In this document: positions 57,494-64,000 of the stretch, piece by piece
Position numbering within the stretch: the first letter of the stretch is position 1
Layout: every line of letters begins with the position of its first letter
Source of the DNA: Escherichia coli
GTDB taxonomy: Bacteria; Pseudomonadota; Gammaproteobacteria; Enterobacterales; Enterobacteriaceae
Reading direction: 5' to 3' (one strand)
Assembly: GCF_045037415.1 (NCBI RefSeq)
Contig: NZ_CP173438.1
DNA length: 64,000 bases
Program-made: the position numbers and the translations under genes
The notes under the pieces: model-generated
Told to the model about the DNA's origin: nothing
The model's input: the letters and a program-made list of their open reading frames with translations, nothing else
Databases searched by the model: none

Positions 57494-58417
57494 TTAACGC
57501 GTTCGCTGCGAAAGCACCTGCTGCTTATCCAGCTTTTGCACCAGCGGCTGCACCACTTTATCCCCATGCTGACCAAAGTATTGATACAGCGTATCGGACG
57601 CACTTTTGGTCAGCACCATAATCTCAATGCGCCGGTTGCCCGCGCTTTGCGGATTTTTGGCATCCAGCAGCATCTGGTCCGCCATTGCACTTACCTGCAT
57701 CACTTTATCTTCCGGCATTCCGGCCTCTTCCAGCACCCGACGAGCTGAAAGCGCGCGATCGCCCGAAAGGTTCCAGTTGTTGTAGATATTGTTTTTGTAG
57801 GCCATCGCATCGGTATGCCCGGTAATAATAATTTTGTTATCGAGCGAGTCGAACACTGGCGCAAGCTCCACCAGCAAAGTTTTAAAGAACGGCATAATCT
57901 TCGCGCTGCCGCGTTCGAACATATTGCGGTTCTGGTCGTCTTTAATCAGCACGCGTAATCCCTGGGGAACAATCTCCATCTCCAGATTCGCTTCCATATG
58001 CGCATCACGGGCGATGGTATTGATACTGGTTGCCAGCTCGCCAAGCTCGGTGGCGGATTTCTTCTTCAGCAGCGCCGTTTTCTCGTTGACGTCGCGCGCT
58101 TTTTTCTCCGTCTCTTCCGGCACCGCCACGGTGGCAGGTTTTGGCGGATGAGACGGGCTGATTTTATTTAACGGCGACAACCCACCACCGTTAAAAATCG
58201 ACTGCCCGTGCAGCGCGGCGATAATGCTTTCACGCTCGGATTTACTGACGCTGTTGACAATCCACAGCGTCATAAATAGCGCCATCATTGCCAAAGTAAA
58301 GTCGGCGAACGCCACCTTCCACGCCCCGCCGTGATGCCCGGCATGATTCTTTTTGATCTGCCGCCGGACGATGGTGGTTTTTGCCCCACGTTCGCGGTGG
58401 TTGCCCGTCTTTCTCAT
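57494..58417 (-). CDS. lafU: Lateral-flagellar (Flag-2) stator protein LafU (MotB-like, OmpA-type C-terminus)
   Basis: MotB-like TM/plug region (WKVAFADFTLAMMALFMTLW) and OmpA-like peptidoglycan-binding C-terminus; start taken at MRKTGNH; adjacent to dinB as expected for Flag-2. Confidence 0.7.
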   Translation of the reverse strand: MRKTGNHRERGAKTTIVRRQIKKNHAGHHGGAWKVAFADFTLAMMALFMTLWIVNSVSKSERESIIAALHGQSIFNGGGLSPLNKISPSHPPKPATVAVPEETEKKARDVNEKTALLKKKSATELGELATSINTIARDAHMEANLEMEIVPQGLRVLIKDDQNRNMFERGSAKIMPFFKTLLVELAPVFDSLDNKIIITGHTDAMAYKNNIYNNWNLSGDRALSARRVLEEAGMPEDKVMQVSAMADQMLLDAKNPQSAGNRRIEIMVLTKSASDTLYQYFGQHGDKVVQPLVQKLDKQQVLSQRTR

Positions 58418-58419
58418 GC

Positions 58420-60049
58420 TTATTCTTGCTCCAGCATCGCATTCACCCACGCGTCGAGGTTGGCGAAGGTCGGTTTGGACGCCAGATGCAGCAGCTTACG
58501 CCCGGCGTCCACCGCCAGCAGCGTCGGTTTGCCGCCTGCCTGCGCCACCAGCACAGTGCGCACGCATTCCAGCAAAGAATGTTCCGCCCGCGCCTGCTGT
58601 TCCATGGCGTTGGCTAGCGGGTCCATCAGGCAGTAGCAGATAAACACGCCTAAAAACGTCCCCACCAGAGCCGCCGCCACTTTCAGGCCAATCAGAGCGA
58701 TAGATCCATCAATCGACTGCATGGTGATGATGATGCCCAGCACCGCCGCGCAAATACCAAATCCCGGCATCGCTTCGGCGGTACGTTGCAGCGAGCGCGA
58801 CGGCGTTAACAGGGACTCTTCCGCGGTGTCCAGTTCCTGATCGAGAATGCCTTCCAGCTCATGGGCGTCGATTTTACCCATCGCCATCAGGCGAAAGTTA
58901 TCAGCAATAAAGGTCACCAGCCGCTTCTGGGTTAACACCAGCGGGTATTTCTGGAAAATGGTGCTCTCTTCCGGCTGCTCAATATGCTGATCCAACATCC
59001 GCAGACCGCCGTTTTGCACCATTTCGAGCAACTCATACAGGCACATTAATAGCTGACGCTGAAACTCCGGCCCGAGCTGTTTTTTACTGATCACGCCTTT
59101 AATTTGATGGGCAATCTCTTTCAGCACATGTTTCGGGTTACCAATAATCATCGCCCCGAAACCGGCACCCAAAATAATGATCATTTCCGCCGGTTGCCAG
59201 ATAGCCACTAATTGCCCGCCCGCTTCAAAATAACCGCCAAATACGCAGCCGAGCACCACCAGTAAACCTAATATTTTTTGGGTGATGCTGCCAACTTACT
59301 GATTTAGTGTATGATGGTGTTTTTGAGGTGCTCCAGTGGCTTCTGTTTCTATCAGCTGTCCCTCCTGTTCAGCTACTGACGGGGTGGTGCGTAACGGCAA
59401 AAGCACCGCCGGACATCAGCGCTATCTCTGCTCTCACTGCCGTAAAACATGGCAACTGCAGTTCACTTACACCGCTTCTCAACCCGGTACGCACCAGAAA
59501 ATCATTGATATGGCCATGAATGGCGTTGGATGCCGGGCAACAGCCCGCATTATGGGCGTTGGCCTCAACACGATTTTACGTCACTTAAAAAACTCAGGCC
59601 GCAGTCGGTAACCTCGCGCATACAGCCGGGCAGTGACGTCATCGTCTGCGCGGAAATGGACGAACAGTGGGGCTATGTCGCGCCAGCGCTGGCTGTTTTA
59701 CGCGTATGACAGTCTCCGGAAGACGGTTGTTGCGCACGTATTCGGTGAACGCACTATGGCGACGCTGGGGCGTCTTATGAGCCTGCTGTCACCCTTTGAC
59801 GTGGTGATATGGATGACGGATGGCTGGCCGCTGTATGAATCCCGCCTGAAGGGAAAGCTGCACGTAATCAGCAAGCGATATACGCAGCGAATTGAGCGGC
59901 ATAACCTGAATCTGAGGCAGCACCTGGCACGGCTGGGACGGAAGTCGCTGTCGTTCTCAAAATCGGTGGAGCTGCATGACAAAGTCATCGGGCATTATCT
60001 GAACATAAAACACTATCAATAAGTTGGAGTCATTACCTATTTTTTGCAT
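58420..60049 (-). pseudogene. lafT: Lateral-flagellar stator LafT (MotA-like), interrupted by IS1 after codon 4
   Basis: ATG at 60049-60047 encodes MQKI, then IS1 (59281-60037), then the ORF resumes ...LGLLVVLGCVFGGYFEAGG; MotA-like TM helices. Confidence 0.7.
59281..60037 (+). mobile_element. IS1 copy (757 bp) with an 11-bp internal deletion in insB; inserted in lafT
   Basis: IS1 inverted repeats; flanking 9-bp direct duplication tattttttg (59272-59280 and 60038-60046); compared with the copy at 43087-43854 it lacks gggctaaatcg after ...ggctatgtcg. Confidence 0.9.
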
Positions 60050-60061
60050 GATTTCTTCACT

Positions 60062-62334: not shown

Positions 62335-62642
62335 GACTTCTCCGAAAGTAAATTAACAATTGAGTAGGCCAGTACGCCTTCCTGATGCCGCTGATGCTGT
62401 TCCATACGCGCTTTCAACACTTCTGCGCGCTGCTCGCGCCGTTTAATCAGGGCATTAAACGCGCCGTACAGTTGTGCCTTCACCGCATCCAACTGCGCCG
62501 CGTCGGTTTCCGCCGCCGCGTAATCGTGAAACTGGCGCATCAACTGCTGATACAGTGCCGGAAGGCGTCGCCAGCGTTGCTTGTCGAGGGCGTCATTCAT
62601 CGCTTCGACCAGTGCAAAAAGTTGCCTGCGTTGTTTTTCCAT
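62331..62642 (-). CDS. lafD: FliT-like flagellar export chaperone LafD (103 aa)
   Basis: Small helical protein between fliS-like and fliK-like genes; assignment by synteny only. Confidence 0.4.
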   Translation of the reverse strand: MEKQRRQLFALVEAMNDALDKQRWRRLPALYQQLMRQFHDYAAAETDAAQLDAVKAQLYGAFNALIKRREQRAEVLKARMEQHQRHQEGVLAYSIVNLLSEKS

Positions 62643-62646
62643 CGTC

Positions 62647-63069
62647 TTAACCCAGCTTGCCCGAAAGCCCTTCCCAGCCTTCGCGCAGGTTGCTTAAGAT
62701 CAGCATCACTTCATCGATTTTCTCTGCCGACAGTTCGCCGCTGGCTTCATACAAGCGATACACACAGTGGTCATAGAGGCGCGAAAGGTTGACCACCAGC
62801 TCGCCGCCGGTTTCAAATTCCAGCGAACTGGTGAGCGCATTGAGAATGTCGATGCATTTATTGATGCTCTGGGCTTTCTTCTCGAAACGCCGCCCTTCAA
62901 TGTGGCTTCTGGCGCGTTCCAGCTCGTCCATCAGGCCAGAAAACAGCACCAGCACCAGTTCAAGAGGCGATGCCGCCGCGGTACGCGCCGCGAGATCGAT
63001 CTCTTTGTATTGCGAATAACCGTCCTGTACTTGGTACATCTTTAAGGATATTCCTTCTGAATTACGCAA
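62647..63069 (-). CDS. lafC: FliS-like flagellin chaperone LafC (140 aa)
   Basis: FliS-like helical bundle (...ELVLVLFSGLMDEL...); synteny. Confidence 0.6.
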   Translation of the reverse strand: MRNSEGISLKMYQVQDGYSQYKEIDLAARTAAASPLELVLVLFSGLMDELERARSHIEGRRFEKKAQSINKCIDILNALTSSLEFETGGELVVNLSRLYDHCVYRLYEASGELSAEKIDEVMLILSNLREGWEGLSGKLG

Positions 63070-64000
63070 ATGCCGCCATACTGGCTTTCATGGTGTACAC
63101 CTCAACCAACGTATTGGTGTACTCCTCGAGATAACGGTCGTAGTTAGCGTTATAGGTATCGGTAAGCTGATCGCCTTCGTCCTGAATTTTGCTCATCTGA
63201 TCATCAATGTTCTGCTGGCGCAGGGTGATGATGCCGTTGCTGGAGTCCGTGTAGGTGTTAATCAGGTCGTCCATCTGCGCCACCATGCTGTTGTCGCCAA
63301 CGAAAATAGAGGTCAGGCCGTCGGGATCGCTCTTCATCGCGTCGTTGAACTGGTCGGAGTCAATCTGTAAGTGGCCGTGAGAATCGAGCGTGATGCCATA
63401 GTCGACAATCGACACGCCGTTGTAGCTGGCATGGGCGATGTCATCGAGCTGGTTTGCCAGTGAGCTGAGTCCAGCATCCCCCGCAAAGACCCCGGCGCTA
63501 CTACTGTCATCACCGTGGGTGGTTAGCGAATCAACCGTATCAATCAAGGTGTTATAGGCATCGACAAAGGTCTGTACTTTCTCCTGGCTGGCGCTGGAAT
63601 CTTCACTGATGTTAAAGGTGGTGAGATCGCTGTCAGAATCGCTGACTTCGGTAAAAGTCATGGTGACACCGGGGATCACATCATCAAACGTGTTGCTGCT
63701 GTTGGTGATAGCCGGTCCGCTGGCGCTACCGAGATGAATAATCGCGTCCTGAGCGGAGGAAACATCCGTGGCAACGGGCGCACTGGTGCTATCGTTGCTG
63801 GCATCATGCCCCGTTACGCTCACCGAAAACGCGCTCTGCGCCCCGGTGCTATCGGAGGTGAGCATAATCGTGGTGGTGCCGTCGGTTTTTACCAGTGCCG
63901 CCGACACGCCCGGATTGTCATCGGAGTCGTTAATCGCATTCACCAGCTCGCTGGCGTCGATAAAACCGTCACCGTCACCGTTCTGATCTGCCGCCGACAG
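63062..64000 (-). CDS. lafB: FliD-like filament cap protein (HAP2) LafB, C-terminal part; gene continues beyond the window end
   Basis: Frame remains open upstream of the GTG at 63943 to nt 64000; Asp/Ser/Thr-rich protein with C-terminal coiled-coil-like segment; synteny upstream of the fliS-like gene. Confidence 0.5.
   Translation of the reverse strand: MSAADQNGDGDGFIDASELVNAINDSDDNPGVSAALVKTDGTTTIMLTSDSTGAQSAFSVSVTGHDASNDSTSAPVATDVSSAQDAIIHLGSASGPAITNSSNTFDDVIPGVTMTFTEVSDSDSDLTTFNISEDSSASQEKVQTFVDAYNTLIDTVDSLTTHGDDSSSAGVFAGDAGLSSLANQLDDIAHASYNGVSIVDYGITLDSHGHLQIDSDQFNDAMKSDPDGLTSIFVGDNSMVAQMDDLINTYTDSSNGIITLRQQNIDDQMSKIQDEGDQLTDTYNANYDRYLEEYTNTLVEVYTMKASMAAFA

Follow-up and report, generated by a model that had tools for sequence, protein, structure and literature searches.

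We found that the Flag-2 lateral-flagellar cluster on the Escherichia coli contig NZ_CP173438.1 (RefSeq assembly GCF_045037415.1) is interrupted by a copy of the insertion sequence IS1 near the start of lafT, the gene encoding its MotA-like stator subunit. The stretch of DNA that we analyzed, hereafter the window, is 64,000 nucleotides (nt) long, and its last part, from position 57494 to 64000, is the dinB-proximal end of Flag-2, represented by eight laf open reading frames (ORFs) on the minus strand. The same lafT::IS1 allele is carried by a group of sequence type 131 (ST131) genomes, and in relatives with the identical junction the rest of the cluster is kept as far as it was read. Judging from the sequence, loss of LafT function and a polar loss of LafU, the MotB-like subunit encoded directly downstream, are the most likely consequences of the insertion.

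IS1 separates lafT from its start codon

The insertion is laid out as follows, in positions of the window:

58420..59280, minus strand: body of lafT, codons 2-287 and the stop codon, severed from the ATG and the ribosome-binding site
59272..59280, no strand assigned: target-site duplication, copy 1, TATTTTTTG, which is lafT codons 2-4
59281..60037, plus strand: IS1, 757 bp, in opposite orientation to the laf operon, compared by alignment to K-12 IS1A and to the other IS1 of the window
60038..60046, no strand assigned: target-site duplication, copy 2, TATTTTTTG
60038..60049, minus strand: orphaned lafT codons 1-4 (ATG CAA AAA ATA), 12 nt downstream of the lafS stop codon and reading on into IS1

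An exact 9-bp duplication, tattttttg, flanks the two ends of the element, and the coding strand of lafT runs ATG CAA AAA ATA, then IS1, then CAA AAA ATA TTA GGT and onward. Because CAA AAA ATA is read on the minus strand on either side of IS1, the duplicated target corresponds to codons 2-4 and the element lies after codon 4. When IS1 and one repeat were removed in silico, an uninterrupted ORF of 287 codons was restored (beginning MQKILGLLVV), and its product matched the MotA family TIGR03818 with 375.5 bits against a cut-off of 303.8. A sequence-only reading of the window had already placed IS1 after the fourth codon of a MotA-like lafT, with an intact 9-bp target duplication; the terminal repeats, the duplication and the restored 287-codon ORF agree with this placement, and the copies at 59272-59280 and 60038-60046 are exact.

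In RefSeq, the Prokaryotic Genome Annotation Pipeline (PGAP) calls the remnant a "flagellar motor stator protein MotA" of 288 amino acids (WP_029700697.1; window 58420-59286, minus strand), the start of which is an ATC codon within the IS1 inverted repeat, at window position 59286. This call conceals the disruption of lafT, and since the disrupted gene is annotated as an intact 288-amino-acid MotA, these strains will be counted erroneously as having a complete Flag-2 in surveys of gene presence.

The empty site is ancestral and the allele is clonal

In EC958, the ST131 reference strain, the site is empty and lafT is intact, encoding a LafT of 287 amino acids (WP_001169518.1). Over 48499-59280 and over 60038-64000, the DNA of the window is 100% identical to that of EC958; the two mismatches that were reported are an over-run of the alignment into the IS1 end. 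Our distribution sample comprised 5,426 complete E. coli genomes, 1,255 of which matched an artificial empty-site query, and because the empty site exists in these genomes, lafT::IS1 is a genuine insertion polymorphism and not a chance similarity. The occupied junction was found in 57-58 genomes of the sample. About 53 of these are 99.9-100% identical to the window at the junction, including an 11-bp deletion inside IS1, and all of them that name a clone are O25b:H4-ST131. Translations of the remnant are also present on public contigs, with at least 1,000 contigs for the 288-amino-acid product and 572 for a 279-amino-acid version that starts at a GTG. Given this distribution of the junction and the number of contigs with remnant products, the lafT::IS1 allele marks a sizeable O25b:H4-ST131 sub-lineage. 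In the literature found by strain name, a pathogenicity island that bears the name of Ecol_AZ146 is treated under ST131 subclade C2, and the sub-lineage possibly falls within that subclade. Our literature search found no description of lafT::IS1 in ST131. We also considered an assembly artefact and rejected it, as more than 50 genomes that were finished independently share this junction.

The IS1 element

Both ends of the element match the IS1 terminal inverted repeats of about 23 bp exactly (GGTGATGCTGCCAACTTACTGAT / GGTAATGACTCCAACTTATTGAT), with the left repeat (IRL) at 59281-59303 and the right repeat (IRR) at 60015-60037. The gene insA (59336-59611) and the A6C frameshift motif are intact, and insB carries a deletion of 11 bp (IS1 positions 398-408, between about 59677 and 59678) that shifts its frame. 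Compared with IS1A of K-12, the lafT copy shows no mismatch at the 757 positions that the two share, and it has the same terminal repeats of 23 bp and a target duplication of 9 bp, but it differs by the 11-bp deletion and would hence rely on the transposase of other IS1 copies. Because the deletion frameshifts insB, we regard the element as a defective IS1A derivative, predicted to be unable to make its own transposase. It departs in length from the intact 768-bp insA-insB' form, and at 757 bp it is still IS1 by sequence; its target duplication falls within the 8-9 bp of IS1, and the target is present as a single copy in EC958 and in the 1,255 empty-site genomes. In MB1159, one of the genomes with the identical junction, PGAP labels the IS1 transposase "frameshifted".

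The sequence OY019088.1 (ST131 isolate 42; locus L004, 1750-2520) has the same lafT site and duplication, occupied by an intact 768-bp IS1. As one ST131 isolate has the intact element at this site, the simplest reading would be that the insB deletion arose after the insertion; alternatively, gene conversion with another IS1 as donor may have repaired the copy in OY019088.1.

The remainder of Flag-2 is intact as far as read

The other laf genes of the window and the chromosomal flank, all on the minus strand, are the following:

56368..57423, minus strand: dinB (DNA polymerase IV), chromosomal flank of Flag-2; ORF of 351 amino acids, annotated as dinB in identical genomes
57494..58417, minus strand: lafU, MotB-like stator and peptidoglycan-anchor subunit, intact, 307 amino acids; NF005273 (LafU), 579.6 bits against a cut-off of 383
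60062..60778, minus strand: lafS, FliA-like sigma-28 factor of Flag-2, intact; NF009091, 445.4 bits against a cut-off of 339
60798..61265, minus strand: lafF, FliL-like basal-body-associated protein, intact; weak FliL matches below the cut-off, FliL family protein in RefSeq, synteny with strain 042
61273..62334, minus strand: lafE, hook-length control protein of the FliK type, intact; its match to the YscP/FliK C-terminal domain is below the cut-off, FliK in RefSeq, synteny with strain 042
62331..62642, minus strand: lafD, small protein in the position corresponding to fliT; same position and length in strain 042
62647..63039, minus strand: lafC, FliS-like flagellin export chaperone, intact; TIGR00208 (FliS), 78 bits against a cut-off of 53.75
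63062..64000, minus strand: lafB, FliD-like filament cap, cut by the window end; FliD matches, below the cut-off for the partial protein

Families were assigned with NCBIfam profiles at their curated cut-offs, applied to the window proteins and the reconstructed LafT. Both the reconstructed LafT and LafU score above these cut-offs as MotA/MotB-type stator proteins, and LafD matched no NCBIfam family. The sequence-only reading had named the eight genes beside dinB as lafB-C-D-E-F-S-T-U; their identities and order hold according to the ORFs, the NCBIfam scans, the RefSeq annotation of identical genomes and the synteny with strain 042, but lafB is incomplete, with only its C-terminal 311 of 438 codons inside the window (the full gene has 1317 nt in identical genomes). 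The genes thus follow the order of Cluster 3 on one strand. Their location is that of Flag-2, between dinB and the yafL/rayT side: dinB directly adjoins lafU in the window, and the far boundary, lfhA-rayT-yafL, was read in THO-003 and EC958, which share the identical junction or flanks. The further statements that the remaining laf genes of the window are intact and that K-12 keeps only fragments were confirmed as well, by the complete identity of the DNA with EC958 and by the pseudogene remains of lfhA and lafU at the K-12 site.

Beyond the window end, Flag-2 was followed in relatives with the identical junction. THO-003 has the complete cluster, from lafU through lfhA, and none of its genes there is flagged as a pseudogene; in MB1159 the part that was read, from lafU to lfgN, is likewise intact, so the upstream region is not missing from these genomes. 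A sigma-54-interaction-domain protein at the lafK position and genes at the lafW and lafZ positions, which lie outside the window, are likewise present in identical-junction genomes. Each Flag-2 protein in the THO-003 and MB1159 stretches has the RefSeq accession of its counterpart in EC958, whose site is empty, whereas the window carries lafT::IS1, and the IS1 in lafT is the only protein-level difference from EC958 seen in those relatives.

The laf names were defined in E. coli 042, the Flag-2 locus of which is reportedly the subject of Ren et al. 2005. This strain has the same dinB-adjoining site and the same gene order, lafB-C-D-E-F-S-T-U, and a comparison proposed with the sequence-only reading gave identities of 286/287 (99%) for LafT, 303/307 (99%) for LafU and 233/238 (98%) for LafS, with synteny kept. 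In 042, Flag-2 is inactivated by a frameshift in lfgC, whereas lfgC is intact in the relatives with the lafT::IS1 junction, in which the lesion is IS1 in lafT. Strain 042 also differs by an extra RelE/ParE toxin and helix-turn-helix antitoxin pair between the genes at the lafW and lafZ positions (L013, 43886-44536) and by yafNO next to dinB, both of which are missing here; ST131 is without the RelE/ParE pair (EC958, L008, 31199-33077). The remnant in K-12 (lfhA'/lafU', formerly fhiA/mbhA) sits at the same dinB locus and represents another route of Flag-2 loss, in which about 40 kb disappeared in a single lfhA-lafU deletion, whereas here the whole cluster is kept and one gene is interrupted.

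Two discrepancies of naming touch this comparison. The difference of ST131 has been described as the absence of 'lafWZ (putative toxin/antitoxin)' (Kakkanat et al., PMC4637896), and EC958 has genes of 978 nt and 843 nt at the lafW and lafZ positions, so that the disagreement looks like one of names. The 90%-identity protein cluster that contains LafT (287 amino acids) also lists LafU-named proteins of 307 amino acids, including its representative, which is odd for unrelated proteins and may be a clustering or naming artefact of the collection.

Target choice and recurrent IS1 insertions

The 50 bp around the insertion site have a G+C content of 32%, compared with 54% for the segment, which places them in the lowest 0.5% of 50-bp windows and makes the site the most AT-rich spot of the segment, in keeping with the known target preference of IS1. 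Independent IS1 insertions in lafS or lafT also occur in five other, unrelated lineages, namely PEC389 (L005), ZH177 (L007), EC09 (L012), MDK6L1 (L011) and Z503 (L006), which brings the independent events in these two genes to six, ST131 included. Because of these five events and that of ST131, the lafS/lafT end is a regional hot spot for IS1. The agent and the target region are the same in all of them, but in the five other lineages IS1 lies at other positions, at distances from 27 bp to several hundred bp, and each event adjoins a deletion that removed some or almost all of Flag-2, whereas the ST131 event is a simple insertion that kept both flanks and the duplication. In the survey of flag-2 loci by De Maayer et al. 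2020 (PMC6993521), transposases, including that of IS1, commonly disrupt these loci, and the five lineages with IS1-adjacent deletions match this published picture of transposase-driven decay.

Predicted effects on lafT and lafU

The gap between lafS and lafT is 12 nt, and the lafU ATG follows the lafT stop codon after 2 nt. Perfect sigma-54 -24/-12 motifs (TGGCAC-N5-TTGC) lie directly upstream of lafB and of lfgB (L001, positions 27426 and 40365 on the minus strand, the former equivalent to about window position 64425, beyond the window end), consistent with control by LafK and sigma-54 as in the lateral flagella of Vibrio and Aeromonas. A search of the minus strand near IRL, where IS1 faces lafT, revealed no outward sigma-70-like promoter, and no convincing sigma-28-type site that would drive lafTU independently was found between or inside lafS and lafT. 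Because a sigma-54 motif precedes lafB and no such alternative sites precede lafT or lie at the IS1 end, lafT and lafU are most likely transcribed from the lafB promoter. IS1 insertions are strongly polar in both orientations, as is classical from the gal and lac operons.

We consider it highly probable that IS1 knocked out lafT with a polar effect on lafU and that this represents neutral decay within an ST131 sub-lineage. A simple transposition would have brought IS1 into the 5' end of lafT, which encodes the MotA-type proton-channel subunit of the Flag-2 motor, the site probably being chosen because it is the most AT-rich spot available. The ATG and the short lafS-lafT spacer would thereby have been left on one side of the 757 bp and codons 2-287 on the other, so that full-length LafT could no longer be made. 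Transcription and translation of lafU would be strongly reduced through the polarity of IS1 and the loss of translational coupling, which is expected because lafT and lafU end the lafBCDEFSTU unit, with its short gaps and its sigma-54 motif before lafB. The outcome would be a Mot-type defect, in which Flag-2 could at most build paralysed filaments, and the later loss of 11 bp from insB would have turned the insertion into a non-autonomous element. In EC958, which is free of this IS1, neither LafA nor Flag-2-dependent motility was detected under laboratory conditions (Kakkanat et al. 2015, PMC4637896). Because Flag-2 is not expressed there and plays no role in motility, the event most likely reflects neutral decay of a cryptic locus and is now a marker of the clone, and for the same reason the loss of function may lack a phenotype, probably having none under such laboratory conditions.

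An allele that is hypomorphic instead of null is unlikely. It would depend on read-through from the lafB promoter or from within IS1 and on translation that starts at the Val9 GTG or at the ATC chosen by PGAP, resulting in a weakened stator with normal LafU. The frame upstream of lafT codon 2 contains a stop codon but none of the starts ATG, GTG and TTG. The first canonical start is the GTG at 59259, which has a weak AGG 7 nt before it and opens a reading frame of 279 codons; together with the 288-amino-acid product called in RefSeq and the fully intact lafU ORF, this would allow for some residual stator. However, Val9 lies inside the first transmembrane helix, and a protein starting there would be deprived of 8 of about 20 residues of this helix. 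ATC works very poorly as a start codon, the IS1 end yielded no outward promoter-like site, and the strong polarity of IS1 argues in the same direction. That IS1 supplies or creates an outward promoter, freeing lafTU from the LafK/sigma-54 hierarchy and making the stator constitutive, is barely credible: hybrid promoters can arise at the ends of IS1 in certain contexts, but the minus strand near IRL has no promoter-like match, and the native start codon and ribosome-binding site are gone from the gene body.

It is also very improbable that the inactivation was selected, i.e., that loss of the Flag-2 stator or of Flag-2 itself was advantageous, that the lafS-lafT border is hit repeatedly because insertions there inactivate the stator or start a deletion of Flag-2, and that the allele aided the success of the ST131 sub-lineage and partly drove its expansion. 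If this were true, the benefit could lie in removing a costly or immunogenic cryptic motor, or in paralysed filaments that act as adhesins. The six independent IS1 events in lafS/lafT and the frequency of the ST131 allele on public contigs agree with such a benefit, but the most AT-rich 50 bp of the segment alone account for the hot spot, and the remaining five events are deletions next to IS1 in genomes rich in this element, with 22-40 IS1 matches per record. Moreover, a Flag-2 that is silent in EC958 offers little for selection to act on, and hitch-hiking explains the frequency within one clone equally well.

Several points weigh against a neutral, polar knockout of lafT as we propose it. 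Read-through transcripts could yield an N-terminally shortened LafT that lacks 8 residues, and lafU may have an internal promoter beyond the reach of consensus scans. The predicted loss of LafT and LafU derives from the sequence, the proposed neutrality from a single laboratory study of one strain, and the probable completeness of Flag-2 beyond position 64000 in the source strain from its relatives.

Elsewhere in the window

A second IS1, an intact 768-bp copy in minus orientation, occupies window positions 43087-43854 within hsdS, the specificity subunit gene of a type I restriction-modification system in the tRNA-Thr island, and is flanked by an 8-bp target duplication, gaaggtta. This insertion was found in 0 of the 5,426 complete E. 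coli genomes, for which reason it is private to the source strain, and it probably disables that restriction-modification system. According to the annotation of the identical THO-003 sequence, window 36223-45300 is a defence island beside tRNA-Thr that contains an AbiEi/AbiEii toxin-antitoxin pair, the type I restriction-modification genes hsdR-hsdM-hsdS and degraded integrase genes. Between dinB-yafP and pepD, window 53979-56371 holds a gene for an RNA ligase of the rtcB family and also prfH, which encodes release factor H, and the yafN-yafO toxin-antitoxin pair, which is located between dinB and yafP in K-12 and 042, is missing in this lineage.

Implications for Flag-2 in ST131

The lafT::IS1 allele is a routine insertion-sequence knockout in a known and apparently cryptic cluster, and its value is that of a lineage marker, not of new biology. 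It adds one more case to the insertion-sequence decay of cryptic Flag-2 that is already documented across Enterobacterales. Its junction, carried by about 53 of the 5,426 complete genomes and by at least 1,000 public contigs, provides a clean marker of an ST131 sub-lineage that can be tested by PCR, and studies that test the function of Flag-2 in ST131 should choose a strain without the lafT::IS1 allele.

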